Positions 23,310-64,000 of a stretch of DNA of 64,000 nucleotides are shown piece by piece. Origin of the DNA: Candidatus Micrarchaeota archaeon (lineage in GTDB: Archaea; B1Sed10-29; WALL01; WAMD01). The translations under genes and the position numbers were made by a program. Every line of letters begins with the position of its first letter. Positions within the stretch are counted from its first letter, which is position 1. Location: NCBI GenBank assembly GCA_964652335.1, contig CAZZDL010000001.1, forward strand, positions 89,216-153,215. The letters are read 5' to 3'. The notes beneath the pieces are model-generated. The model saw nothing but the letters and a program-made list of their open reading frames with translations, made no database searches and had not been told where the DNA came from.

Positions 23310-24749
23310 ATGTCTTCCATTAAGAAAATCAATGATATTACCGTATATCTTGTTGATCTTCCAAAGTTAAGCGAGGAGGAAAAGAAATTCATTGATTCAA
23401 TAATAGAATCTGCAGTTAGGGATTTCACAGACGCAGAGTTATCTAGGATATTCTTGGTGGATGAAAAGAAGGGTGAATTCATCCACGACGTAAAGGCATT
23501 GCTGTCTAAAGTGCAGTTTACTGTTTATCCACACGAGAGGGATCTTGTTAGATCAAGGGTTGAGAAGTTGGTTGCGAAGTACATTGGTTCAAAAAGTAAA
23601 AAGATAGTTGACCTTGCGATAGATTACTTGTTTGGTTTTGGAAGGATAACGCCTCTGCTTTTGGACCCTGATATTGAGGAGATAATGATAAATGGAGAGT
23701 CCAAGCCAGTTTTTGTAGCTCATAGGTCCTACGGTATGTGCAGGACAAATATTGTTTATGATTCAAGAGAGGAGCTAGAGCTGTTAGCTGAAAGAATATT
23801 GAACATGAGGAAGCCAACGAGGCCAATAATAGATGGCTCATTGGAGGATGGCTCTAGGTTTAGTTTGGTCTTGCCACCCGTGTCACACGCTCCAACGATA
23901 ACAATAAGGAAGTTCACGTCGGAGCCGTTTAGTATAGCCGAACTAGTCCTGAATGGGACAATGAGTATAGATCTGGCAGCTTTTCTTTGGATGGCAGTTG
24001 AAGGGATGAAGGTGAGGCCTTCAAATATCTTGATAGCTGGGGGAGCAGGATCTGGAAAGACCACGACTCTTAACGCGTTAATAGGATTCATCCCTTCTGG
24101 TGAGAGGATAGTTACAATTGAAGATACCCCCGAGCTAAACCTAGCCGAACGAGATAATGTGGTTAGATTGTATTCTTATTATGATAGTAAGAATTCTGTT
24201 AGCTTGGCAGACTTGGTTAAAGCTTCATTGAGACTGAGGCCAGACAGGATAATAGTTGGTGAAGTTAGAGGTAGTGAAGCAGAATCAATGTTTACAGCAA
24301 TGGATGTTGGATGCTCAGGATCAATGGGGACTATCCATGCTAACTCTGCAAAGGAAGTGATAAAGAGGTTAAAGAATAAGCCAATGAATGTTCCAGAGAC
24401 TTTAATTCCATTGCTTGATATAATCTTAGTACAGCATAGAGTGAACGTTCCAGGAAAAGGGATAGTTAGGAGAATAGTTGAAGTGACAGAAGTGGATTAT
24501 CTAGACAAGATAACGCTTAATACAATATACAGATGGGATAGAGAATCTGACAGTTTGGTGAAATCAGATATACCTCCAACCTTGTTTGATAAGCTTTCCT
24601 CCTTGACAGGTCTTACTAAGCTGGAGATAATGGACGAGCTTGAGAAAAGGAAAAGAACATTGAAGAACGCGTTGAACAGAGGAATTAAGACTTACAATGA
24701 GTTATATCCTGAGATATCCAAAGACCTTAGTTCCAGATCTATGTCTTAG
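23310..24749 (+). CDS. FlaI/TadA/VirB11-family secretion ATPase (orphan paralogue of the 35031 gene); start moved to the internal Met MSSIKK
   Basis: Walker A GGAGSGKTT, Asp box, Walker B RPDRIIVGEVRG, His box GTIHANS, and a TITIRKF motif shared with the 35031 paralogue. Confidence 0.8.
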   Translation: MSSIKKINDITVYLVDLPKLSEEEKKFIDSIIESAVRDFTDAELSRIFLVDEKKGEFIHDVKALLSKVQFTVYPHERDLVRSRVEKLVAKYIGSKSKKIVDLAIDYLFGFGRITPLLLDPDIEEIMINGESKPVFVAHRSYGMCRTNIVYDSREELELLAERILNMRKPTRPIIDGSLEDGSRFSLVLPPVSHAPTITIRKFTSEPFSIAELVLNGTMSIDLAAFLWMAVEGMKVRPSNILIAGGAGSGKTTTLNALIGFIPSGERIVTIEDTPELNLAERDNVVRLYSYYDSKNSVSLADLVKASLRLRPDRIIVGEVRGSEAESMFTAMDVGCSGSMGTIHANSAKEVIKRLKNKPMNVPETLIPLLDIILVQHRVNVPGKGIVRRIVEVTEVDYLDKITLNTIYRWDRESDSLVKSDIPPTLFDKLSSLTGLTKLEIMDELEKRKRTLKNALNRGIKTYNELYPEISKDLSSRSMS

Positions 24750-26280
24750 TGATTACTCCTATCTCAACAAGTTTTTCTACAGCCGCTTTCACTAGAACTT
24801 TACTGTAACCTAATGTAACACTTGCATTATCTACATTCATTACTCCACCCCTGGATTTTATGTACTCAAATACGTCCATTAGTAGCGGATCCTCCGTTGA
24901 GAAATCAGGTCTCGTTATGTGGTATGTGCCGTCTACCACTAGTCTCTTGGTTGGCTTCTCTGCCATCAGTCTAGCTATTAAATTAGATTTATATGTTATT
25001 CCAAAGAAGCCGATTATAGTTAGCAGGACTACCACCACTATTAGCCAAATTACATTGATACAGAACTTCCCTATACATACTATTCCAACTTTTACCGCAC
25101 TTTCAAACGCGCAGTTTCCTATTTCATCTTTACAAAAGTAAGGATCTGGTTCCTTGTATATAACGTCGTATTCTGTCTTTAAGTTGAATGGGTCGTATTC
25201 CCTTGTTAACTCCCCAAGATTCGTTTCAACCCAAGCATAGTAGTTTCCCCCTCTTTGTTTCCCTATAATCAGCCTGGCAGGAATACCTACCCTCCTTGCA
25301 GATTCTCTAAATATCAATGCCTTTTCCAAACTGTCATATGACGATTTATTGCTCATCACTAGCCAGTCTACATTCGTTGTCAATGGGAAATCTGGACTGC
25401 CTGATGGCAAGTCGTTCACGTAGTCTACAATTGTTGCGTATATCTCGGAGGAGCCAGATGTTAGGTCTATGCTCGGTACGAATGTTGAGGAGGCGTATTT
25501 GTTTTCTTCATTTAGTAATGGATCTTTCTCAGATAGTAGGAACACTTCCTTGTCAACAACTGATTTCACAGGAAATGCATTGAGTATTGTTGATTCTGCA
25601 AAGTACGCTCCCAAGTAATGAAACTCTAGAGTATAGGTGGATTTGGCAGGAATCTTAACTGCCCATATGAACACTTTAGATGGTTGCATAGTAACATTCA
25701 CATCTGGGAGAGGATAACTTGGAGGGTACGGTTCAAAGTATATTATTAACATGTTTCCATACAATCCCCTATCTGTTGGAGACAAATATGCAAAATGTTT
25801 TGATTGATCCTTTGCAAATGGTGCGTACATTGAATAGGGATTGTTTTCATCAGTGATCTTTACCTCAACTATAACGTCTGTTTCCTTTGTATTTTCTAAT
25901 TTTATCTCCTGTATAACATCCTTGTCAGTTATAGTCACTTGAACGTTTGCATAGACATCCTCTGCAAAGGCTTCAGGATACGTTACCTTGAAGTTACTTA
26001 TGTCTGATCCAACCACAGGCTTGTCAAATCTCGGTTCAGGCATCTCTATCTCAGAGTTTAATACTCTCATGTATGGAAACGGGAATATTGGCATTAGATT
26101 GTTTACTAGCATTCTGTTCTCTGATGGGTTTATCTTTACTAAATGTTTGTCAGACGAAAAAAGCATGAAATTGTTTTCGTCTTCTCCAACGAAGGTTAGA
26201 GCAAATACAAATTGCGACGCTAGTAATAAACCAGTAATGATGACTAGTATGTTAAAGCAATTTTTCATGCACAATTTCAT
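24739..26280 (-). CDS. secreted, membrane-anchored protein with a large extracytoplasmic domain, one TM and a C-terminal cytoplasmic winged-helix-like domain
   Basis: signal peptide MKLCMKNCFNILVIITGLLLASQFVFA; TM VIWLIVVVVLLTIIGFFGI; C-terminal LLMDVFEYIKSRGG...SVTLGYSKVLVKAAVEKLVEIGVI resembles a wHTH. Confidence 0.5.
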   Translation of the reverse strand: MKLCMKNCFNILVIITGLLLASQFVFALTFVGEDENNFMLFSSDKHLVKINPSENRMLVNNLMPIFPFPYMRVLNSEIEMPEPRFDKPVVGSDISNFKVTYPEAFAEDVYANVQVTITDKDVIQEIKLENTKETDVIVEVKITDENNPYSMYAPFAKDQSKHFAYLSPTDRGLYGNMLIIYFEPYPPSYPLPDVNVTMQPSKVFIWAVKIPAKSTYTLEFHYLGAYFAESTILNAFPVKSVVDKEVFLLSEKDPLLNEENKYASSTFVPSIDLTSGSSEIYATIVDYVNDLPSGSPDFPLTTNVDWLVMSNKSSYDSLEKALIFRESARRVGIPARLIIGKQRGGNYYAWVETNLGELTREYDPFNLKTEYDVIYKEPDPYFCKDEIGNCAFESAVKVGIVCIGKFCINVIWLIVVVVLLTIIGFFGITYKSNLIARLMAEKPTKRLVVDGTYHITRPDFSTEDPLLMDVFEYIKSRGGVMNVDNASVTLGYSKVLVKAAVEKLVEIGVITKT

Positions 26281-35030: not shown

Positions 35031-36602
35031 ATGGCGTATCTAGATGAGTTAATAAAATTAGGTAAAGAGAAGGAGAAGAAGAAAACTGAAGAAAAAAAGA
35101 CAGAGGAAGAGAAGAAACCATCTAAGATAGACGAATGGGTTGAAGGGTCTTTACCTCCTGGAAGCGAGCTTATAGACGCATATGGAATATGCAAGATATA
35201 CAAAGTAAAAGGAGAAAAACAGCTAATCTATGCAGTTCCAGTTCCAAAACCTGCTGGACCTGATAGAGTCATAATTGACACAATAAAAGAGGCAGCAACA
35301 AAATTGATAACTGTTTCACCCGAGCAGATAAAGGATCCAGACGAGAGAAGGGAGTTCTACAAAAAGAGAGTTATGGAAATAATAAAATCCACACCAGAGC
35401 TTGGAGTCCCTCCGAACTGGCAGCCATTCTATGCAGAAACTGTTGTTAGGGAGATGATAGGATACGGGGCGCTAGATCTCCTTCTTGAGGATGATGCATT
35501 AGAAGAAATAATGGTCATTGGTCCGGGAAAACCAGTGTATGTATTCCATAGAAAATATGAGATGTGTAAAACAAATGTAATATTTGGAACTGATGATGAT
35601 ATTAGAGCTATAATAGATAGGATAGCGAGGGACGTTGGAAGAAGAATAGATATACAGGTCCCATTGTTGGATGCTAGACTACCAGATGGGTCCAGGGTAA
35701 ATGCTACAATTCCTCCAATCAGCTTAAACGGTTCAACTATAACAATAAGGAAGTTTAGGGAAGATCCTTACACTATCGTTGATTTAATAAAGAACGGCAC
35801 CGTTAGCTCTGAACTAGCTGCCTTCATGTGGATAGCTGGGGAAGGGCTTTCAGCTAAGCCAGCAAATGTTATAATATCTGGAGGAACAAGTTCTGGAAAA
35901 ACGACAACGCTAAACGTCATGAGCATGTTTATCCCACCAACAGAAAGGGTTATTACAATAGAAGATACAGCAGAGTTGAAGCTTCCAATAGAACATTGGA
36001 TAAGGTTTGAGACTAGACCGCCAGGACTTGAGGGAACTGGGGAAATAGACATGAATGCATTGGTGAAGAACTCACTGAGAATGAGGCCAGATAGGGTTAT
36101 AGTTGGTGAAGTAAGAGGTGAGGAGGCGTTTACATTATTCACTGCAATGAACACAGGTCACGACGGTTGTATGGGCACTGTTCACGCCAATGATTCAAGG
36201 GAAACCATAGTCAGGCTAACGAATCCGCCAATGAATGTCCCAAGCGTCATGCTGTCTGCATTGGATATAATAATAACACAGAAAAAGATACATGATAGAA
36301 GGAAGGGCACCATAAGAAGAGTAACAGAGGTTGCAGAAGTCACTGGTGTTTTGGAGGGCAAACCACAACTCATTTATCTCTATGAATGGGATCCAGTCAC
36401 TGATCAAATCAAGCCTACAGGTGTCCCGAGTAAGTATCTTAGAACACTGGAAAGGTATACTGGTCTTAGTCATGCAGAGGTCATGGAGGAGCTAGAAAGA
36501 AGGAAGGAGTTCCTTGAAGGGCTTGTTTCAAAGGGTATCAGGGACATAAAATCTGTTTCTAAAGAGATAACAGCTTACATAGCTGGTGGACATAATGGCT
36601 AA
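35031..36602 (+). CDS. type IV pilus assembly ATPase, FlaI/TadA family
   Basis: Walker A GGTSSGKTT, Walker B RPDRVIVGEVRGEEA, His box GTVHANDS, TITIRKF motif. Confidence 0.85.
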   Translation: MAYLDELIKLGKEKEKKKTEEKKTEEEKKPSKIDEWVEGSLPPGSELIDAYGICKIYKVKGEKQLIYAVPVPKPAGPDRVIIDTIKEAATKLITVSPEQIKDPDERREFYKKRVMEIIKSTPELGVPPNWQPFYAETVVREMIGYGALDLLLEDDALEEIMVIGPGKPVYVFHRKYEMCKTNVIFGTDDDIRAIIDRIARDVGRRIDIQVPLLDARLPDGSRVNATIPPISLNGSTITIRKFREDPYTIVDLIKNGTVSSELAAFMWIAGEGLSAKPANVIISGGTSSGKTTTLNVMSMFIPPTERVITIEDTAELKLPIEHWIRFETRPPGLEGTGEIDMNALVKNSLRMRPDRVIVGEVRGEEAFTLFTAMNTGHDGCMGTVHANDSRETIVRLTNPPMNVPSVMLSALDIIITQKKIHDRRKGTIRRVTEVAEVTGVLEGKPQLIYLYEWDPVTDQIKPTGVPSKYLRTLERYTGLSHAEVMEELERRKEFLEGLVSKGIRDIKSVSKEITAYIAGGHNG

Positions 36603-37680
36603 GAACATAGAAGTAGAGGAAAGAAAACAAGCAGGTTATAGGAAGACCGACGTAGAAACAATAATACGAAGAATGAAAAAAGTCTATCAAGAGAGAGGAT
36701 ATTCAGAAGAAGAAGCAAAAGCACTTGTTTTGAAAAGGGCAGTTACAGGTACAAGGGCTATTGATATTGAGACAATGGCCCCAAAGGACCTAGTAAAATC
36801 CAACAACGCATTGCTGCGGATAGTTGGGATTGTTTTTTCCAGATTTAGCTTTCTTTCTTCCCTAGCAGAAAAGATTGCTGACTCTGATATAGGATCAAGG
36901 TTAATGAGGGCACTAGATTCAGTAAATTCAAGGTATTCAACAAGTCAGTACATAGCTATTGCCATGTTTGTATCCTTGTTCTCGGCTTTCATACTTTCTT
37001 TACTGTTTACATTCGCTTTGATGGACATAGCTGACCCAGTGGTGATGTTTCCGATAGTGTTTATCACTTCGTATCTGTTCTCATTTTTTATTGCGTTGAA
37101 GCTCCCTGAATCAAATGCTAAAAGGAGAGGAAAGAACATAGATAAAGTTCTTCCATTCGCATTGAGACATTTTGCGACTGAGATAAAGGCAGGTGTTGGT
37201 ATTCACAAAGCAATGAGAGCCATTGCAAATTCAGGATACGGAGCTTTGTCAGAGGAGTTTCAGAGGGTGATAGACGAAATAGAAAAGGGAGTTACCACAG
37301 AGGATGCTCTAGAAGCTTTGGCAAATAGGACAGAGTCTGATGATCTTGCTAGATCAATATTGCACATAATAAGAGCCTTGAGAACTGGTGGAAATCTGTC
37401 AGAGATATTAACAAAGATTGCAGATGATGTTTCTTTTAACCTAGCTGTTAGGATGAGAGATTTCTCAGAAAGATTGACATTGATAAGTTTGTTCTATATG
37501 ATGGCAGGAGTTGTGTTCCCTGTTTTCATATCTGTTTTGTTTGCGATATTCTCATCTGCCCCGTCCTTGGGTCTAGCCGGTGTTGTAGGACCAGATATTC
37601 TCATGATGATATATCTCATAATAATTCCCATGTCCCTGGGTGTTATCCTGTACATAATTAATGTAACTCAGCCAATGTGA
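36586..37680 (+). CDS. type II secretion system F-domain membrane protein (TadC/FlaJ-like, single domain)
   Basis: multi-TM protein with one T2SSF-like soluble domain; overlaps the ATPase stop. Confidence 0.65.
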   Translation: MDIMAKNIEVEERKQAGYRKTDVETIIRRMKKVYQERGYSEEEAKALVLKRAVTGTRAIDIETMAPKDLVKSNNALLRIVGIVFSRFSFLSSLAEKIADSDIGSRLMRALDSVNSRYSTSQYIAIAMFVSLFSAFILSLLFTFALMDIADPVVMFPIVFITSYLFSFFIALKLPESNAKRRGKNIDKVLPFALRHFATEIKAGVGIHKAMRAIANSGYGALSEEFQRVIDEIEKGVTTEDALEALANRTESDDLARSILHIIRALRTGGNLSEILTKIADDVSFNLAVRMRDFSERLTLISLFYMMAGVVFPVFISVLFAIFSSAPSLGLAGVVGPDILMMIYLIIIPMSLGVILYIINVTQPM

Positions 37681-38549
37681 TGATCATGGAGATATACAGG
37701 CAGTACAAGGCCGCCATAAAGGCGATGAATGAAGAGTGGGAACCAGACATAGTTCTGCTAGAGGCATTGTTCTTATCGTCCATATTGTTCGTTTATGTTG
37801 GATTATTCGTTGATATCTTCCTTGGTGGATTACTAGCTTTGATAGTAATGGATCTAGCTGTTGGATATCCAATTCACAGAGTGCAAAAACGGATAGAGAG
37901 CATAGAAAAAGGTCTTCCTGATGTTTTAAACCATATAGCTATCAGCATAAGGGCAGGGGCGACAGTTGAGGCGGCTTTGAAGGAGATAGCGGAATACAGG
38001 TATGGCATTCTCTCTAAGGAAATGAAAAAGGTCTTGCTGGCAATGAAGAAGGGAAAGACATTTGAGGACGCATTTAGAGATTTTGCAGAATCTTCAGGTT
38101 CTCCACTTGTTGAAAAGACAGCAGAGGTTATAATATCTGCGAAGATGTCTGGAGGAGGATTGACTGCAGCGTTAACTAGTATAGCAGATGATATTAGACA
38201 CATATACAGGCTGAAAAAAGAGAGAAAAGCAAGAACAACGACGCAAGTTCTGTTCATAATAGTTGCAGCAAATTTCGTTGCACCAATGATATTTAGCTTG
38301 CTTACCGGTGTCATGCAGTTTATGGGTTATATTGCTGGTGAAGCAGCAACGCCAGCGTTTGAGGCAATAACGTTTTATTTCAAGGTTTATCTAATAATCT
38401 CAGCCGTTTTCTCATCTGTTGCAGCGGCATTAATAAGGGAAGGAAACCTGAGTAAGGTAGTTATATATGCACCAGTTTTGTTACTAATAACGTATGGTAT
38501 ATACATGGGGGTGAGTAGCTTTGCACTCAAGCTTTTTATCGGAGGATAG
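37677..38549 (+). CDS. second type II secretion system F-domain membrane protein (TadB/FlaJ-like, single domain)
   Basis: ATGA-coupled to the previous gene; hydrophobic N-terminus and T2SSF-like segment LPDVLNHIAISIRAGATVEAAL. Confidence 0.65.
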   Translation: MMIMEIYRQYKAAIKAMNEEWEPDIVLLEALFLSSILFVYVGLFVDIFLGGLLALIVMDLAVGYPIHRVQKRIESIEKGLPDVLNHIAISIRAGATVEAALKEIAEYRYGILSKEMKKVLLAMKKGKTFEDAFRDFAESSGSPLVEKTAEVIISAKMSGGGLTAALTSIADDIRHIYRLKKERKARTTTQVLFIIVAANFVAPMIFSLLTGVMQFMGYIAGEAATPAFEAITFYFKVYLIISAVFSSVAAALIREGNLSKVVIYAPVLLLITYGIYMGVSSFALKLFIGG

Positions 38550-38679
38550 AGGGCAGATATCACTTGAACAGATACTGCTGTTGTCATCTATAGTCATGGG
38601 AATGTTGGTGCTTGGGTATTTGGTCAAAACACAGCTGAAGAATTTGTTTGCTGAGCAGAAGGTGGTTGCCAACGAAACA

Positions 38680-38716
38680 TTTAATAAGAGCATATGAGTT
38701 TATGCTAAAGGAGGTG
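38680..38716 (+). promoter_or_regulatory. TATA-like box (TTTAATAA, 38680-38687) plus a strong Shine-Dalgarno (AAGGAGGTG, 38708-38716) ahead of the major pilin gene
   Basis: GGAGGTG lies 6 nt before the ATG; own promoter in the 173-nt spacer. Confidence 0.35.
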
Positions 38717-38722
38717 TAATTT

Positions 38723-39100
38723 ATGTTTGGTAGAAAAGGTCAAGGAGCATTGGAATACTTATTGATATTGGCTGCAGTTTTAGTGATAGCAGTAATAGTG
38801 ATATTGGTTGCACACAGGATATCTACACCAGCTCAAACATCTGTTACAGTAAACCAGGACAAATTTGACTGTGCAAAGGTAGGTATAGAATTGTTGAATT
38901 ACAATGAGCTTCCACAACAGGCCAGTGACGTATCTGTGAAGTACAACGACATTTCAGATACGTGTGAGCAAACCACAACTGAGCCAGACAGTTACGATGC
39001 AAGCTGTAAGATACACTTTAAGGACAACTCAGAGCACTACCTATACGTGAATCAGCCAAATACAACATCGGTAGAGTGTTATATACAGGTATCAGCATAA
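38723..39100 (+). CDS. major pilin, Flp-like, with class III signal peptide
   Basis: MFGRKG then QGALEYLLILAAVLVIAVIVILV; G-Q cleavage context with Glu+5 and Tyr+6. Confidence 0.75.
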   Translation: MFGRKGQGALEYLLILAAVLVIAVIVILVAHRISTPAQTSVTVNQDKFDCAKVGIELLNYNELPQQASDVSVKYNDISDTCEQTTTEPDSYDASCKIHFKDNSEHYLYVNQPNTTSVECYIQVSA

Positions 39101-39113
39101 GAGGAGTGAGTAG

Positions 39114-39284
39114 ATGGATGACCGCGGCCAGACCTCGTTGGAATACTTGTATCTTCTAGCTTTTGTTGTAGGTCTGGCCGCAGCAGTTGCTCTGATAGTC
39201 AATGACATTCTAGCTATTCAGTCCAGGGCAAAGACAAAACTAGAGTATTATAGAGATCACATCCTAGGGAAGATATTAAGATGA
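39114..39284 (+). CDS. Flp-like mini-pilin (56 aa), not in the ORF track
   Basis: translation MDDRGQTSLEYLYLLAFVVGLAAAVALIV...; TGA overlaps the ATG of the peptidase gene (ATGA). Confidence 0.6.
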   Translation: MDDRGQTSLEYLYLLAFVVGLAAAVALIVNDILAIQSRAKTKLEYYRDHILGKILR

Positions 39285-40231
39285 TCTACATAGGCATAGC
39301 ATTGATAATGGTCTGTTTGGCTACTTATTTTGATTTAAAAAATAGAGTCATCCCAAGAGAAATAACCCTGGGTGGATTAGGATTAGGTCTTGCACTTAGA
39401 TTCTTGGATTCTGGGATTCATTCAAACCCTTTAAGCTTTGTCACAGTCTTGTTTTCTGTATTGACCACATTTGTTCTTGTTTATTTTCTCTGGAGGATAG
39501 GAGTCCTTGCAGGGGGAGATGCTAAGCTTTTGACAGCTTTGGCAGCTTATTTACCAGTATTCCCTTCATCCACATTTCATATCTTCTATAGACTATCCTT
39601 TGTCCCGATAATATACAATGGGATCATGGCATTTACCCCGTTTTTGTTGGTCTATTCTTTTGTCTTAGGAGATGGTTTTAGGAAACTTACACGCATTGCG
39701 CAAAAGGCGATTGGCCTTTCATTCCTTTCATTCTCTTCTTTCTCATTTTTTAGTTGGCCATTGAGTATTATTGTATTCTTAGTATTAAGCTACCTACCGT
39801 ACAAGGCATTAATTTTTCTGGTACCAGCAATCCTGGCAGGGTTAAGATTTGGATTTGGCGGATTAATTTATCAGTTCTTACTGTTCTTCTTATTGTCGTC
39901 CTTCTACGAACTTACAGTTGGGTCTATTTCATTATTTGTTAAGACAAAGAAAGTTAACGAGCTCAAAGAAGGGGATGTTTTGTACGATGTGGTGATTGAT
40001 TGTAAAATTGTTAAAAGGGATTTGTTCAACATTATCAAAGCTATTACCCAGGGAATAGCTCCATTGTCTAGAGGATTGTCTAAGGGTGAGATAGCCAAAC
40101 TAAAGAAATGTGGAATTGATACAGTTAGAATCCAGCAATCTTTCCCATTCACACCAGTCATCCTTGCCGGTTTTATTATCTGTGTAACATTTGGGGATTT
40201 GATCTATCTCTTACTTAATAGCTATTTCTAA
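39281..40231 (+). CDS. prepilin peptidase (A24 family, TadV/EppA/FlaK-like) with a C-terminal extension
   Basis: catalytic Asp contexts YFDLKNRVIPRE and LAGGDAKLL; poly-TM. Confidence 0.75.
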   Translation: MIYIGIALIMVCLATYFDLKNRVIPREITLGGLGLGLALRFLDSGIHSNPLSFVTVLFSVLTTFVLVYFLWRIGVLAGGDAKLLTALAAYLPVFPSSTFHIFYRLSFVPIIYNGIMAFTPFLLVYSFVLGDGFRKLTRIAQKAIGLSFLSFSSFSFFSWPLSIIVFLVLSYLPYKALIFLVPAILAGLRFGFGGLIYQFLLFFLLSSFYELTVGSISLFVKTKKVNELKEGDVLYDVVIDCKIVKRDLFNIIKAITQGIAPLSRGLSKGEIAKLKKCGIDTVRIQQSFPFTPVILAGFIICVTFGDLIYLLLNSYF

Positions 40232-40266
40232 CCAAAAAGGCTAAATAGGTATGATATGTTATTCTC

Positions 40267-40734
40267 TTGATGAGGGGTACATTATCAATTGATCTTTTAG
40301 TCACATCAATAGTTATTCTAATGTTAACATCAACAATAATAAGTTTTGTCTATTTTGAGGAAGAAAGAATACTTGAAGCAGGGTACGAATTGGGGGCTCA
40401 GGCTTTGGCTATATCAATTGGTTCTGCGATCAACCAGTTCATTGCAATATCCCCAGATTCTGGTAATTTATCAATATACGTAAAAGACATATCCAATGAC
40501 CCAGCTACAATATCCATGGCAGGAATTCCATTCTCCAATGTGATAGTTACATCTAAGTATTGCAATTACACAATATCAAATGGGAATGTTAATGTTACAA
40601 TAAAACTTGAGTTTGCAGGAACAGGTAGGACAAAAATAGTGAGCGCAAGTTACCCAATATTTGCAAAGGGTTTGTATAGGTCAGGCGATTGTGGGAGTAC
40701 TATAATAATAGATGCGTCAGAGGTGATTCAGTGA
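40267..40734 (+). CDS. minor pilin-like protein (class III signal)
   Basis: MMRG then TLSIDLLVTSIVILML (Asp+5). Confidence 0.5.
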   Translation: MMRGTLSIDLLVTSIVILMLTSTIISFVYFEEERILEAGYELGAQALAISIGSAINQFIAISPDSGNLSIYVKDISNDPATISMAGIPFSNVIVTSKYCNYTISNGNVNVTIKLEFAGTGRTKIVSASYPIFAKGLYRSGDCGSTIIIDASEVIQ

Positions 40735-41003
40735 AGGGGCAGATATTCACAATGGACCTGTTTCTTTCATTGATGGTTATGGTTTTGATAATCAGCATGG
40801 CAGTCGTTATTATTGATGAGCATATAGATGGATTGTATGAAAGGGCTACTGAAGTAAAACTGCAATCCATTGCAATGGACACAGCCAGTTTGCATTACTA
40901 CACGGGTAAGACAGATAACCTAACAAAGATCACGGGAGAGACATGCATACACGCAGTGAGAGGAACAGCGTCCAATGAGGTGATTGGGATTGCATGCGAG
41001 TAA
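40731..41003 (+). CDS. minor pilin-like protein; proposed GTG start (GTGA overlap with the upstream stop)
   Basis: GTG start gives MKG then QIFTMDLFLSLMVMVLI, a clean class III signal; the track ATG start would add 14 non-signal residues. Confidence 0.5.
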   Translation: MKGQIFTMDLFLSLMVMVLIISMAVVIIDEHIDGLYERATEVKLQSIAMDTASLHYYTGKTDNLTKITGETCIHAVRGTASNEVIGIACE

Positions 41004-41259
41004 GGGCGTCGTTTTTAGTATAGAAGTGGCGATTGCCTCTTTATTGTTCATGGTATCCATTGCCATGCTTTATTATTCCTCAGCAGGCTCTGAAGATATG
41101 CCATTTGAATTTCAACAGTCAATGAGGGTAGCTCATGATATGGTTACATCTGGAGATATTAGTTTGCCTGATGGATACTCAAACCAAAGCTGTGATTGGT
41201 ATGCAAGATACGCACCATTAGACTATGAGGGGTATCACGCGGAGGTATGCTTCAAATGA
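40984..41259 (+). CDS. minor pilin-like protein
   Basis: MGLHASKG then VVFSIEVAIASLLFMV. Confidence 0.45.
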   Translation: MGLHASKGVVFSIEVAIASLLFMVSIAMLYYSSAGSEDMPFEFQQSMRVAHDMVTSGDISLPDGYSNQSCDWYARYAPLDYEGYHAEVCFK

Positions 41260-41837
41260 AGGGATTTGTTAATTCATGGAGTGTCATACTAATTGCAACA
41301 TCAATAATTGTACTACTGTCTATGTTCCTGTTTATAGATATAGATTTTAGGGCATTGGACAGCGGATACATAGTTGAATTGTCAAGATGGTATGGAGACG
41401 CTGCGTACACAGCTGCCAAGGGAGGCACATGTGATCCGAAGATATTTGAAAAAAACGTTGTGAAAGAGGGTAAAGATATCCAATTTTCTTCATCTGGCAG
41501 AACCAGAAAACTCTTGTACACTGGTAAATTGGTCAATCTCAATATAACGTATGTGAAAAATTATCCGCCGGTGATAGACATAATAGATCCGTTGAATGGG
41601 ACTACTAATCAATGTGTGAACACATACACAATACAGTGGACAGCGTGTGATATAGATGAAGACAGTTTGAATTACACTGTTTTTTTAGATTCCGTGGTAA
41701 TAGGAGAGACAAATAAAACGTATTTAGACGTACCATGCACTACTCTTGATGGAACTCATGCAATCAAAGTAACTGGTACAGATGGAGAATTAAATGGTAG
41801 TGATACAGTCATCGCAACATTTACTTCATCTAGCTAG
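41247..41837 (+). CDS. minor pilin-like protein with a larger C-terminal domain
   Basis: MLQMKG then FVNSWSVILIATSIIVLL. Confidence 0.45.
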   Translation: MLQMKGFVNSWSVILIATSIIVLLSMFLFIDIDFRALDSGYIVELSRWYGDAAYTAAKGGTCDPKIFEKNVVKEGKDIQFSSSGRTRKLLYTGKLVNLNITYVKNYPPVIDIIDPLNGTTNQCVNTYTIQWTACDIDEDSLNYTVFLDSVVIGETNKTYLDVPCTTLDGTHAIKVTGTDGELNGSDTVIATFTSSS

Positions 41838-60458: not shown

Positions 60459-61045
60459 GGTTTTTCAGGCTTCTTTAGAACCAAATATATTTTTCTTTTC
60501 TTTGGATTTTTTGGATTATCTATTGCAAACTCTCCTTCAAATCCCTGTGAAACGAATGCCTTTCCAACTGCAATCATGTCCTTTTCTGATTTTGGGTAAA
60601 ACTGTATTACAGCAGATCCACCGGGTTTCAAAACACGGAAGAACTCCTTGGCTACTTTCTTTAAGTCTTTTCTTTCTATCCATTGCAATGCAGATATTGA
60701 TAATATTCCGTCAAAGCTCTCATCTTCAAACGGTATGTCTCTCATGTCAGCTAGCTTGACGTTCAGCTTTTTCCTCTTCGCTTCTTCAATCATTTTTTTT
60801 GATAGGTCTATACCTACAGTTTCAAATCCTTTTTCAATTAACACTTCCATTGAGAATCCAGGACCACAACCAACGTCAAGAATCTTTGCATTCTTTTTCC
60901 AATCGGCTAGCTCCAATGCCCTTAGAGTTATTCTTTTTTGTATTGTTTTTATCGCATTAGATTGTGAGTATGCTTCAGCGTGCTTGTCAAAGTATTCATC
61001 TGCGGTGGTTTCCTCTTCTGGCCTCTTCTTTTTTACCTTCCACAT
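60449..61045 (-). CDS. class I SAM-dependent methyltransferase
   Basis: ILDVGCGPG motif. Confidence 0.65.
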
Positions 61046-61053
61046 TTCTATCC

Positions 61054-61626
61054 CTAGAACAATGTTAGTAGCATAAATCCAGGAATTGCAATACTGATCA
61101 GCCAGACCACTGGATTCCAGAGCATTACCTTACTTCCATCTAGAGGGGGAAATGGGAGTAGATTAAAGGATGCTAAGAACAGGTTCGTCCAAGCTCCATA
61201 TACACCTATCAGTGCCAAGGTCTTTATTCCAGAAAAAACTAGGCCTAAAAATAGTATCCCCAATATTATGTTCACTGCTGGCCCTGCTATGCTGATTATG
61301 CCGTTTTCTCTTCTTGTTATTGGCCTGCCACCTATGTATACCGCTCCAGGCGCAGCGAACACGAATCTTCCACCACTCGCTAGTGCCATGCCTAGAGCTA
61401 GAATTAGCCCAGGGATCCAAGCCCTGTAAAAGGCGTGAAGGCCAAACATTCTAGCCACAGTCCTATGACCTAGCTCGTGGAATATAAATCCTAGTCCCAA
61501 AACAAAGAGGAGTATTGCAAAATCTCTGAAGAACCTATCTATTCCCAAGTATATAGAGTCTATTGAGAATGCCAAAGTAATGGTTATCCATGACACTACA
61601 AGATGAACAATCTCTGTCTTTTCCAT
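61054..61626 (-). CDS. site-2 protease family (M50) membrane metalloprotease
   Basis: HELGH and NLLPFPPLDG motifs within TM segments. Confidence 0.7.
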   Translation of the reverse strand: MEKTEIVHLVVSWITITLAFSIDSIYLGIDRFFRDFAILLFVLGLGFIFHELGHRTVARMFGLHAFYRAWIPGLILALGMALASGGRFVFAAPGAVYIGGRPITRRENGIISIAGPAVNIILGILFLGLVFSGIKTLALIGVYGAWTNLFLASFNLLPFPPLDGSKVMLWNPVVWLISIAIPGFMLLTLF

Positions 61627-61727
61627 GGCAAGAATTTTAGTGAAGTGATGTTTATATTAATAGCTTTCTTGCCACTGGTAGAAATCTTTAAATAAATCAT
61701 TTTCTCCAAGCTAATTGGGGGAGAGGT

Positions 61728-61904
61728 ATGGATGACCATGGTCAAGTATCTGCTGAGTTTTTGGTTTTAATGGCTGCAGTCTTAGCTTTGGCAACCCTTG
61801 TTGTAACCCACCTATACACAACAAGCAAGGATTTTACACGATCCAGCTTTGATTCTACAAACAAGGCAATAAAGACGATAAAGAAAATGAATGGAGGTAA
61901 ATAG
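61728..61904 (+). CDS. Flp-like mini-pilin (58 aa), not in the ORF track
   Basis: translation MDDHGQVSAEFLVLMAAVLALATLVV...; preceded by GGGGGAGAGG. Confidence 0.6.
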   Translation: MDDHGQVSAEFLVLMAAVLALATLVVTHLYTTSKDFTRSSFDSTNKAIKTIKKMNGGK

Positions 61905-61916
61905 GGGGAGAGGATT

Positions 61917-62087
61917 ATGGATGACAAAGGGCAAGTATCTGCTGAAATGCTTGTTCTAATGGCCGCTGTCCTGGCGGTAGCATGGCTAGTCCTTTCAAGC
62001 ATGAGCAGTACAGCTAAATCAAGCACAGAGACAGTAAACAGGACGACTGGAAAGATCCTAGACAAGATAGAAAAAATGACTGGTTAA
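61917..62087 (+). CDS. Flp-like mini-pilin paralogue (56 aa), not in the ORF track
   Basis: translation MDDKGQVSAEMLVLMAAVLAVAWLVL...; the same GGGGGAGAGG RBS-like element upstream. Confidence 0.6.
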   Translation: MDDKGQVSAEMLVLMAAVLAVAWLVLSSMSSTAKSSTETVNRTTGKILDKIEKMTG

Positions 62088-62088
62088 A

Positions 62089-62469
62089 ATGAAGGCACAA
62101 ACTAGCCTAGAATTCCTAGTGGTGCTTGCTGCCATGCTCTCTTTCCTAGCTGTCTGGGTAGGCATGGCAGCAAGCACAGGGTCAAGGATTTCTTCTAGCC
62201 TTGACTCTAGGGACGTTTCTCTGGCAGTGAAGACCTTGGCTAGTGACGCTGATTCCATTTGCCTAATGGCTGTTGGTTCTAGGATAGAAGTAGAATTGAT
62301 ATTTCCTGTTGAAACAGAGTTGGCTGCAAATGGGAATAACTTAGTCGCTAGCTGGGGGAACGAAAGTGTATCCTACCCAACGAGGTGTAAAGTATTTACA
62401 AGGAAGGTTGTATATGGCAATGAAAAATTCACTTTGGAGAGAGGGTTACTTGGCGTCTACATAACCTAA
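62089..62469 (+). CDS. pilin-like protein with class III signal
   Basis: MKA then QTSLEFLVVLAAMLSFLAV (Gln+1, Glu+5). Confidence 0.55.
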   Translation: MKAQTSLEFLVVLAAMLSFLAVWVGMAASTGSRISSSLDSRDVSLAVKTLASDADSICLMAVGSRIEVELIFPVETELAANGNNLVASWGNESVSYPTRCKVFTRKVVYGNEKFTLERGLLGVYIT

Positions 62470-62801
62470 TAGCCAAAGTAAAAATAGACATCCTCGGGCT
62501 TATCTCCAGAGAAATCTACTCTGCGTATGACAAATACATTTTTAGGATTTTCCCATTTCACTTTTGTCTCAATTCCGTTTCTAATTATTTTCATCTGAAG
62601 GTCTGGATTCGTGGCTTCTAGTATAATCCTTGCCTCTGATGTAGACAACCCCAAATCAAGTATTATCTCTGATATATCACTCCCTTGCTTGTATGCAACT
62701 GCTTTGTCTAGATTCACATTGTAAACTGGTCTAGCTAGAATCACTACAAGTATAAGTAATGATATTACTGCTTCAATTGTGAATGATGCCCTGCTACCCA
62801 T
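62466..62801 (-). CDS. pilin-like protein (start moved to the internal Met MGSRA)
   Basis: MGSRA then SFTIEAVISLLILVVIL. Confidence 0.4.
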   Translation of the reverse strand: MGSRASFTIEAVISLLILVVILARPVYNVNLDKAVAYKQGSDISEIILDLGLSTSEARIILEATNPDLQMKIIRNGIETKVKWENPKNVFVIRRVDFSGDKPEDVYFYFGY

Positions 62802-62802
62802 T

Positions 62803-63207
62803 TTATACTTTAAGATAAATGATATTTCCATCTTCATCCATAACCACCCTGGTTACTGAGCCGTTTCCGCAAACGGTGCAATTTTTTGAATTCACAAATC
62901 CGAGCTTGGCTAGTCTTTCTCTGGATATCCTTTGGGGTATGACCACCATTCTATCCTTGGAGAAAATAGCGGCCCCTGTTAAATGGTTGTTTATTATCAA
63001 ATCGGATCTCACAATAGACTCAGCCTGACTCCTTACCATTGACGCCGAGTTAGCGATTATAGTAGTATGGATCAAGAGTTGAGTCAGTCCAATTGAAATT
63101 GTCATTATGGTTATTATCATCCATATCTGAGCGTCAATCATCCGTATACCTCCTATAGCTTGTGTTACCAATCCCAGTTGCCCAATCGTCTTTGGAAAGC
63201 AGTTCAC
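62803..63207 (-). CDS. hypothetical protein with an N-terminal hydrophobic segment, in the pilin operon
   Basis: IWMIITIMTISIGLTQLLI; operon context. Confidence 0.35.
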   Translation of the reverse strand: MNCFPKTIGQLGLVTQAIGGIRMIDAQIWMIITIMTISIGLTQLLIHTTIIANSASMVRSQAESIVRSDLIINNHLTGAAIFSKDRMVVIPQRISRERLAKLGFVNSKNCTVCGNGSVTRVVMDEDGNIIYLKV

Positions 63208-63352
63208 CTACATTTATTTCTGTGGATTTGTAGCTTATCCTAGTAACTGGGAGAATTGCAGATACGAAAATGAACACAGCCACAAGGATGATTACAATCA
63301 CAAAAAGGGTTTCAATGCTTACCTGTCCCCTCTTCCCTCTCATACCAGACAC
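63134..63352 (-). CDS. pilin with class III signal
   Basis: MRGKRG then QVSIETLFVIVIILVAVFIFV (Gln+1, Glu+5). Confidence 0.55.
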   Translation of the reverse strand: MSGMRGKRGQVSIETLFVIVIILVAVFIFVSAILPVTRISYKSTEINVGELLSKDDWATGIGNTSYRRYTDD

Positions 63353-63764
63353 CTCCTTTTATGGTGAAGTTCGTTTCTCCAGTTAGGATTATCCCATAGT
63401 TGGATATATTTTCCGCAGGCCTGAGTATTGTCTTCCCGTTCACTATATCAATATTTATCTTTGCTACTCTTCCAGAAGCAAGATCCCCAACAAATATCTT
63501 AAATCCCCTACTCACCCAGTATTCAGTCCAACGCTTAGAATATTCCTTACATAACTCAGGTGATTTTTCACAATGCATGGCCATCTGGGAAAATGTCCTG
63601 TATATATCGTTTTGTAGGTTCAGCTGGGATTGTCTTTCTATTAATCCTAATTCAAGCTTTTTTGCATCTTCAACAAGCTTTGTTTCCACTACTAGCAACT
63701 GGACAAAGCACAGAACGAAGATCAAAACTAATATAAAACTGAATCCCTTCATCCTCTCCCCCAT
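63312..63764 (-). CDS. pilin-like or signal-anchored protein, first gene of the minus-strand pilin operon
   Basis: MKG then FSFILVLIFVLCFVQLLVV. Confidence 0.4.
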   Translation of the reverse strand: MGERMKGFSFILVLIFVLCFVQLLVVETKLVEDAKKLELGLIERQSQLNLQNDIYRTFSQMAMHCEKSPELCKEYSKRWTEYWVSRGFKIFVGDLASGRVAKINIDIVNGKTILRPAENISNYGIILTGETNFTIKGGVWYEREEGTGKH

Positions 63765-63840
63765 ATTTTCTGGGCAAAAGCTTTATAAAAAGATTAGCTC
63801 AAAATTAACTAGCTTTTTGACTATTGATGAGGGATAAGGA

Positions 63841-64000
63841 TGGGATCAGACGAACTTAGAAAGACAAGGGAAAAGATGGCAGAAGTTACATCCAGGATAA
63901 GAAGACTTAGATCCAAGGTTAGAGAACTTAAGCAAAAGAGAGACAAGGCAAATGAAAAGGTAAAAGAGCTAAAGGAGAAGAGAGACAAGGCAAATGCAGA
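63841..64000 (+). CDS. partial CDS (5' end only): K/E/R-rich coiled-coil protein running off the window
   Basis: MGSDELRKTREKMAEVTSRIRRLRSKVRELKQKRDKANEKVKELKEKRDKANA... Confidence 0.35.

Follow-up and report, generated by a model that had tools for sequence, protein, structure and literature searches.

A stretch of 64,000 nucleotides from Candidatus Micrarchaeota archaeon (assembly GCA_964652335.1, contig CAZZDL010000001.1, positions 89,216 to 153,215 of the forward strand; referred to below as the window, whose own numbering is used throughout) contains, at 61728-63764, an island of seven small, close-set genes for pilin-like proteins. Three of these (B1 to B3) lie on the plus strand and converge on four on the minus strand, which are transcribed in the order B7, B6, B5, B4:

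61728-61904, plus strand: B1, mini-pilin of 58 amino acids (aa), ~53 aa when mature, without a globular domain
61917-62087, plus strand: B2, mini-pilin of 56 aa, 51 aa when mature, a paralogue of B1
62089-62469, plus strand: B3, pilin-like protein of 126 aa with a predicted globular beta domain
62466-62801, minus strand: B4, pilin-like protein of 111 aa (start placed at 62837 by the gene caller)
62803-63141, minus strand: B5, protein of 112 aa with a hydrophobic N-terminal helix
63134-63343, minus strand: B6, pilin-like protein of 69 aa
63312-63752, minus strand: B7, pilin-like protein of 146 aa, first gene of the minus-strand group

An independent gene caller returned the same seven genes in two other assemblies of the same organism (58, 56, 126, 123, 112, 69 and 146 aa). 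For B7, a first-pass annotation of this DNA had taken position 63764 as the start; this is an upstream in-frame ATG, and the strong ribosome-binding site precedes 63752 instead. A longer open reading frame (ORF) for B5, beginning with GTG at 63207, was rejected because the conserved 'IGG' upstream of the ATG represents a non-coding GGAGG ribosome-binding site; the ATG itself has the sequence GGAGGT 5 nt upstream. The stop codons of B3 and B4 overlap (CTAA, 62466-62469). Two ORFs antisense to the plus-strand genes (61742-62065 and 62058-62258), which the annotation had set aside as artefacts, lie opposite conserved, Pfam-supported genes that have a ribosome-binding site, and treating them as artefacts is reasonable. 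The island is flanked by housekeeping genes, with an M50 metalloprotease, a methyltransferase and Cdc48 on one side and a coiled-coil protein on the other.

That annotation had described about seven pilin-like genes in two convergent groups, and indeed all seven ORFs were found at their coordinates, each with a product that begins with a hydrophobic, pilin-type N-terminus. In six of them (all but B5) a leader ending in Gly, Ala or Ser stands right before the helix, forming a class III (prepilin) cleavage motif, and this arrangement is kept in the orthologues. The predicted cleavage sites (^) are MDDHG^QVSAEF in B1, MDDKG^QVSAEM in B2, MKA^QTSLEF in B3, MGSRA^SFTIEA in B4, MRGKRG^QVSIETLF in B6 and MKG^FSFILVL in B7. 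Exact Gly at -1, Gln at +1 and Glu at +5, the pattern described for substrates of EppA, the pilin-specific peptidase of Methanococcus maripaludis (PMC3875500), are seen in B1, B2 and B6; B3 has Ala, Gln and Glu at these positions and B4 has Ala, Ser and Glu, which brings the proteins with +5 Glu to five of the seven, B7 having the cleavage motif but not this residue. B5 starts with MIDAQIWMIITIM, a hydrophobic helix without a clear cleavage site in this lineage (the protein begins MIDAQ, with no leader). The hydrophobic stretch of ~20 residues after the cleavage site is common to all seven, with mean Kyte-Doolittle values of 2.1-2.9 over 18 residues for the six scan matches; that of B5, MIDAQIWMIITIMTISIGL, was read from the translation. 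When the proteins were compared with the Pfam profile Class_IIIsignal (PF04021; gathering cut-off 23.7 bits), B1 (27.4 bits) and B2 (27.6 bits) exceeded the cut-off, B3 (14.8 bits) and B6 (17.5 bits) fell under it, and B4, B5 and B7 gave no match. Weak NCBIfam matches (the archaeosortase-linked TIGR04205, 16 bits against a cut-off of 65, and ArlG) were discarded as noise from the N-terminal helix.

These signals are retained family by family in about a dozen other genomes. Orthologues of B1 and B2 keep MDDxG^QVSAE, those of B3 [KR][GA]^Q.S[LI][ED], those of B4 [KRS][GA]^x[FIM]T[LI][ED]A and those of B6 G^[QL].S[LI]E, while B7 orthologues all begin M[KR](R)G^[FIT] followed by a hydrophobic stretch, again without +5 Glu; distant orthologues of B5 carry G^Q..[LI]D. 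Since this N-terminal design is common to seven adjacent genes and kept within each family, and since 14 of 15 mini-pilin orthologues match PF04021, it goes beyond chance. Judged by these sequences, six of the seven are class III proteins by motif and two by curated profile, and all seven have a pilin-type helix, so that most of the set stands up to a formal analysis of its N-termini. The class III signals first noted in two minus-strand genes are those of B4 (SFTIEA) and B6 (QVSIET), both with a cleavage motif and +5 Glu, and the hydrophobic N-terminal segments attributed to the other two were found in B5 and B7, the latter having a cleavage motif as well. In a more distant clade the B6 orthologues are leaderless (L004 8292-8543, L005 504-710, L006 6349-6576, L011 8980-9237 and L083 10449-10682, L-numbers denoting related loci or contigs); they begin M-N/S-T-L/I-E-A (MNT[LI]EA), with Met at the pilin position +1 and Glu at +5, and for such a protein cleavage by a prepilin peptidase would not be needed.

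Beyond the N-terminus, B2 is 54% identical to B1 and 77% identical to its own orthologue in L003, the closest other species. The B3 alignment shows an invariant Cys pair and a conserved N-x-S/T sequon; B7 likewise has a conserved sequon and a Cys pair; B6 has a conserved C-terminal N-x-S/T-YRRW motif, its sequon being present in 7 of 12 sequences; and the sequons of the B3, B6 and B7 families are each kept at constant alignment columns. B5 has a conserved CGNG[ST] near its C-terminus and no Pfam match. The Cys pairs and sequons would fit exported, glycosylated proteins. An AlphaFold2 model of B3, built from 17 family members (pLDDT 77), shows an N-terminal helix of 56 residues (3-58) followed by a five-stranded sheet, a predicted shape like that of the pilin 'lollipop'; nothing significant was found when this model was compared with the PDB by Foldseek. 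The model of B7 is confident for the helix (2-63) and of low confidence towards the C-terminus, where it is unreliable past residue 90.

As had been claimed at first pass, the island has no ATPase or peptidase of its own: no assembly gene lies inside or adjoining it, and the nearest, the peptidase at 39281 and the platform and ATPase genes at 35031-38549, are ~22-25 kb distant. Pilus machinery is encoded elsewhere in the window:

35031-36602, plus strand: T2SSE ATPase (Pfam T2SSE, 164 bits)
36586-37680, plus strand: T2SSF platform gene (Pfam T2SSF, 85 bits)
37677-38549, plus strand: second T2SSF platform gene of the pair (Pfam T2SSF, 71 bits)
39281-40231, plus strand: A24 prepilin peptidase (Peptidase_A24, 49 bits; D18 and GGD80 motif; ~7-9 hydrophobic segments)
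~23310-24749, plus strand: second, stand-alone ATPase of the T2SSE family (Pfam T2SSE, 129 bits), 37 kb from the island

The two ATPases are 38% identical, and no platform gene was found near the one at 23310. The earlier suggestion that the 35031 machinery or the 23310 ATPase could serve the island is upheld by the presence in the window of a full set (ATPase, two T2SSF proteins and the A24 peptidase at 39281) plus a paralogous ATPase. By gene content, one ATPase and two platform genes together with many pilins and a dedicated peptidase are the signature of archaeal type IV pilus (T4P) clade 1, or system 1 (Epd type). The machinery locus (locus A) has seven pilin-like genes of its own, three before the peptidase and four after it, up to 41837. 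Both complements, that of locus A (38521-41837) and that of the island, consist of a pair of mini-pilins, a single pilin of ~125 aa and a further four pilin-like genes. The locus-A mini-pilin A3 (39114-39284, plus strand; G^QTSLEY) shares the MDDxGQ leader of B1 and B2. Both A3 and another locus-A pilin, A2 (38723-39100, plus strand; G^QGALEY), have Glu at +5 and Tyr at +6, as in the Flp-type motif of bacteria. The gene convergent with the second ATPase (24739-26280, minus strand) encodes a membrane-anchored protein of 513 aa with a sub-threshold match to the transglutaminase core (18.7 bits against a cut-off of 23); transglutaminase-family surface peptidases have been linked to clade 1 T4P systems (Makarova et al. 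2016).

Relatives were found by a search with the neighbouring M50 gene, which yielded 75 loci; the closest belong to metagenome-assembled genomes (MAGs) of DPANN archaea ('Nanobdellati' S016_130, 76% identity; Candidatus Iainarchaeum, 51%). The island genes are not confined to this genome, a point on which their first-pass description had been made to depend: related DPANN contigs, at least 15 in number, carry them as a module, for the most part with the convergent gene order unchanged. Some of these contigs are from MAGs labelled Micrarchaeota, the others from Iainarchaeota/Diapherotrites. The whole module is present gene for gene in L003, L004, L006 and L083-L089 and in reduced form in L005, L011, L020, L078, L080 and L082; three MAGs with a Micrarchaeota label (L011, L020 and L058) have a reduced module beside the M50 gene, and in L020 and L080 only one mini-pilin and B3 remain. 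Orthologues of B1 were found in all related loci. In L005, two mini-pilins and the homologues of B6, B5 and B4 all lie on one strand; this fusion indicates that the two gene groups are functionally linked, and the convergent layout is common, yet not obligatory. An ATPase or platform gene adjoining the module was found in none of ~15 contexts (including L078-L089).

The island proteins are 44-77% identical to those of L003. A word-index homology search with B3 alone returned only B3 itself, and a profile of synteny-derived orthologues was required to find its relatives. With such profiles, searches of 5.8 billion proteins gave 17 members for the B3 family and 12 for the B7 family, and an exhaustive HMMER scan with B7 gave 8 relatives among 1.84 billion representative proteins; as far as these sequences tell, both families are narrow, fast-evolving and unannotated. 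In three relatives an insert of three genes lies exactly at the point of convergence (L006 7175-9256, L084 11290-13368 and L082 7337-9747), encoding a Fer4_5 membrane protein, a PF07790 Pilin_N pilin (with a Hint/intein-like fusion in L082) and a protein of ~160-170 aa. The Cdc48 homologue beside the module in Candidatus Iainarchaeum (L004 10579-14118, minus strand) is 1179 aa long, and its second AAA domain seems to contain an intein-like insertion (LAGLIDADG/Hint-like).

A 10-mer resembling a Shine-Dalgarno sequence, GGGGGAGAGG, occurs in three exact copies in the 64 kb (0.12 would be expected by chance), all of them in the island, and a candidate TATA box was read from the sequence upstream of the first gene on each strand:

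61687-61694, plus strand: candidate TATA box TTTAAATA, ~34 nt upstream of the B1 start
61717-61726, plus strand: GGGGGAGAGG copy before B1
61904-61913, plus strand: GGGGGAGAGG copy before B2
63753-63762, minus strand: GGGGGAGAGG copy before B7
63783-63790, minus strand: candidate TATA box TTTATAAA, ~31 nt upstream of the B7 start

A pattern search for a TATA box followed by a ribosome-binding site gave a single match, the site upstream of B1; TTTAAATA and TTTATAAA are taken as candidate promoters. Wherever nothing is inserted between them, the convergent 3′-ends abut or overlap by 0-23 nt (window 62466-62469, L003 7073-7076, L011 9455-9458, L083 and L085-L089), and therefore each transcript must end within the opposing gene. 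A search downstream of the convergent genes for conserved oligo-T terminators showed that the relatives do not consistently have them.

Within B3, the stretch coding for the N-terminal helix contains a hairpin with a perfect stem of 16 bp (62122-62137 / 62162-62177, plus strand) and a loop of 24 nt (predicted RNA folding energy -45.7 kcal/mol, z = -4.9). By length it ranks first among the window's perfect inverted repeats. L003 retains the hairpin by way of three compensatory double changes, and two of these alter amino acids; a shuffle control on these two sequences gave 76 of 500, a result that is uninformative at that sample size. The hairpin was rejected as a general feature of the module, being found in the window and L003, shorter in its stem in L086, and absent from L085, L087, L088 and L089. 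It may be a lineage-specific mRNA element, such as an attenuator or a stability element between the major-pilin genes and B3; equally, it could be the product of template-switch 'palindrome correction'. Positions two to five in the list of inverted repeats are sub-stems of this hairpin. The next distinct perfect repeat, the third-longest (12 bp with a 34-nt loop, 39124-39135 / 39170-39181, plus strand), lies in the N-terminal coding part of the locus-A mini-pilin gene (39114-39284), and may reflect Ala/Leu/Gly codon composition or an mRNA structure that recurs in pilin genes.

The reading we favour, with moderate confidence, is that the island comprises, as a self-contained set, the genes for the subunits of an Epd/Tad-like T4P (archaeal 'system 1'), which are kept at a locus of their own while assembly takes place in trans. 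B1 and B2 are the candidate shaft subunits, because they are head-less, ~52 aa long when mature, first in their operon and preceded by the strongest ribosome-binding sites. They would be made as short preproteins with an MDDxG leader and cleaved to single-helix pilins of ~52 residues with Gln at +1 and Glu at +5, which would polymerise into the shaft as do EpdE of Methanococcus or bacterial Flp. B3, B4, B6, B7 and probably B5 would be low-abundance, pilin-like minor pilins that share the N-terminal helix and bear small extracellular domains, glycosylatable and partly disulphide-bonded; by analogy with bacterial minor pilins, they may form a priming or tip complex, with B7 and B5, which lack +5 Glu, as the candidates for the very tip. 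The leaders would be removed by the only prepilin peptidase in the window (39281-40231), and the fibre extruded by the 35031-38549 ATPase and two platform proteins, possibly with the paralogous 23310 ATPase. A pilin island without machinery is expected biology, since most archaea have pilin genes outside their T4P operons (Makarova et al., PMC4858521) and the pilus genes of M. maripaludis are spread over at least four loci (PMC3875500). We lean towards a second filament, built by the island itself, because its complement mirrors that of the locus-A pilins.

Several observations weigh against this reading. The only link between the module and the motor is their co-occurrence in one window, and the machinery locus, with seven pilin-like genes already, has no obvious need of the island. 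B3-B7 match no fitting family in Pfam or NCBIfam, both of which were scanned, B5 is without formal class III features in this genome, and the globular part of B7 is poorly modelled; what is said of the island proteins rests on their sequences and on predicted models. When island and locus-A pilins were compared (BLASTP and hhalign), similarity was confined to the N-terminal helix, as in a weak hhalign match of B4 to the locus-A gene at 40731 (76% probability over the first 53 residues); a comparison of the two loci, for shared minor pilins, had been proposed in the first-pass annotation. Its result bears also on a somewhat unlikely alternative, in which there is one pilus rather than two and the island supplies extra major and minor pilins to the locus-A (38521-41837) filament. 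A single peptidase and a single pair of platform genes are visible in the window, the MDDxGQ leader is common to A3, B1 and B2, and in M. maripaludis both the major pilin EpdE and one essential minor pilin (MMP1283) are encoded away from the epd operon, all of which would suit a shared filament; yet the two sets are numerically parallel and each apparently complete, a second ATPase paralogue exists, and no homology is detectable between their globular domains. A departure of another kind, to which we give an improbable rating, is that no adhesive pilus is made at all, and that the genes build a short pseudopilus, a structure for host contact or for DNA or protein transfer in a symbiotic DPANN clade, or use the prepilin pathway merely for membrane anchoring. 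In its favour are the attachment of DPANN archaea to hosts, the restriction of the families to a lineage, and the use of class III signals by archaeal proteins other than pilins as well; moreover, five of the seven genes count as 'minor-pilin-like', and such a ratio is typical of pseudopilus systems. However, two head-less subunits of the Flp/EpdE type with the strongest ribosome-binding sites point to a long homopolymeric shaft, and no enzymatic or substrate-binding domain was found in the Pfam and NCBIfam scans. There is a slim chance, smaller again, that the convergent-operon module, standing beside M50 and never beside a motor, encodes a fast-evolving filament for host contact that defines the clade of Iainarchaeota and related DPANN symbionts. 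The abutting or overlapping 3′-ends, the leaderless members and the lineage-specific B3 hairpin would then be regulatory features, with antisense overlap or attenuation setting the ratio of major to minor pilins, or with M50-dependent processing; if true, this would go beyond a plain Epd-type pilin cluster.

The first-pass annotation had seen in these genes alternative filament subunits for surface variation. That they form a reservoir for antigenic or phase variation by recombination or switching can be credited with hardly any likelihood. B1 and B2 are tandem paralogues, and the genes evolve fast, as the identity to L003 and the families of fewer than 20 members indicate. Nevertheless, a repeat search of 61000-64000 revealed no silent or partial cassettes, inverted repeats flanking a segment or recombinase, and no recombinase lies among the neighbouring genes; besides short chance matches, the only direct repeat, and the only outcome of the search for signatures of pilin switching, was the diverged B1/B2 duplication (77 nt, 74% identity). 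This duplication is old, because in the relatives one gene is orthologous to B1 and another to B2, and the same seven orthologous genes recur in the same order across many genomes. A fixed, single-copy orthologous set in DPANN genomes of different phylum labels speaks for a core apparatus, not a switching cassette; the sequence divergence read from the alignments is rapid between species, not within the genome. It is also very unlikely that the M50 metalloprotease (61054-61626, minus strand, 190 aa, site-2-protease-like) is a functional partner that processes short-leader or leaderless pilin-like proteins or is co-regulated with them. This gene is divergent from the mini-pilin genes and abuts them head to head, an adjacency also found in L004, L005, L006, L011, L020, L058, L078, L080 and L082-L088, including MAGs labelled as different phyla, and some B6 and B5 orthologues are leaderless. 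In the contexts recovered with the B3 and B7 profiles (L078-L089) the module stands beside M50 and Cdc48, but L089 has a DUF763 gene in the place of M50, and in L003 two unrelated genes intervene. Homologues 40-48% identical in methanogens and other archaea have no pilin neighbour, which makes M50 look like a housekeeping gene, and A24 aspartyl peptidases are the enzymes known to cleave class III signals in all cases studied. Shared ancestry of the genomes is a simpler explanation of the synteny than a functional link.

On the favoured reading, that of an Epd/Tad-like subunit set, the closest known counterpart is the Epd pilus of M. maripaludis. The resemblance extends to class III leaders ending in Gly with Gln at +1 and Glu at +5; to a head-less major pilin of ~50-60 mature residues encoded outside the machinery locus (B1 53 aa and B2 51 aa, ~22-25 kb away, where ~55-65 residues were taken as typical of the Epd type); to several minor pilins of ~110-150 aa; and to one ATPase, two platform (TadC-like) genes and a dedicated A24 peptidase with multiple transmembrane segments, the pilus genes being split over loci. 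It differs in that the island leaders are acidic (MDDxG) while Epd leaders are Lys-rich, in that no sequence relationship between B3-B7 and an annotated family could be detected, and in that the peptidase sits here with the ATPase and platform genes while that of M. maripaludis sits with the minor pilins; the host, too, is a DPANN archaeon, not a methanogen, the likeness being known here from gene content and motifs. Reports of clade 1/system 1 cover methanogens, Thermococcales and some DPANN archaea (PMC4858521; bioRxiv 10.64898/2026.04.22.720090), in the last with stand-alone pilins at separate loci (bioRxiv 10.64898/2026.04.22.720090), and the major pilins of clade 1 systems are predicted to be those encoded by small (~70 aa) stand-alone genes (PMC4858521). 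With bacterial Tad/Flp systems the island shares a very short, head-less major pilin accompanied by a handful of pilin-like 'pseudopilins' (there TadE and TadF), and the window has two platform proteins (compare TadB and TadC) and a TadA-like ATPase; Pfam Flp1_like was weakly matched by two mini-pilin orthologues. Unlike Flp, B1 and B2 lack the Tyr at +6 of the Flp motif, having F or M after E5; a Pfam scan of the island gave no TadE (PF07811) or TadG match and a single TadF match, that of B6, at 11.7 against 27.3 bits; secretin and outer-membrane parts are missing; and the genes for the subunits lie apart from the machinery. Haloferax volcanii PilA1-6 and other stand-alone archaeal pilins also lie away from pilB/pilC and share a peptidase and machinery in trans (PMC3875500, PMC4858521), but these are DUF1628-type pilins with globular domains and without +5 Glu, occurring as singletons or tandems and forming no conserved module of seven major and minor pilin genes. 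With fimU-pilVWXE of Pseudomonas aeruginosa and gspHIJK of the type II secretion system there is no sequence homology, the island proteins being archaeal and much smaller, and the role suggested by that comparison is by analogy only.

DPANN archaea are tiny, mostly uncultured symbionts whose attachment to their hosts is poorly understood, and type IV-like pili are prime candidates for it. Pilin genes apart from their motor are a layout already known in archaea, and ordinary in that sense, and the general view of how archaeal pili work is unchanged by the present finding; the motor-separate layout of Methanococcus and Haloferax is extended to a DPANN clade of the Iainarchaeota/Diapherotrites type. 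The analysis defines a conserved, compact module of two head-less major-pilin candidates and five pilin-like families that lack annotation and for each of which fewer than about 20 members are known; the proteins of this module are concrete targets for proteomics, cryo-electron microscopy and antibody work in enrichments of Iainarchaeota/Diapherotrites.

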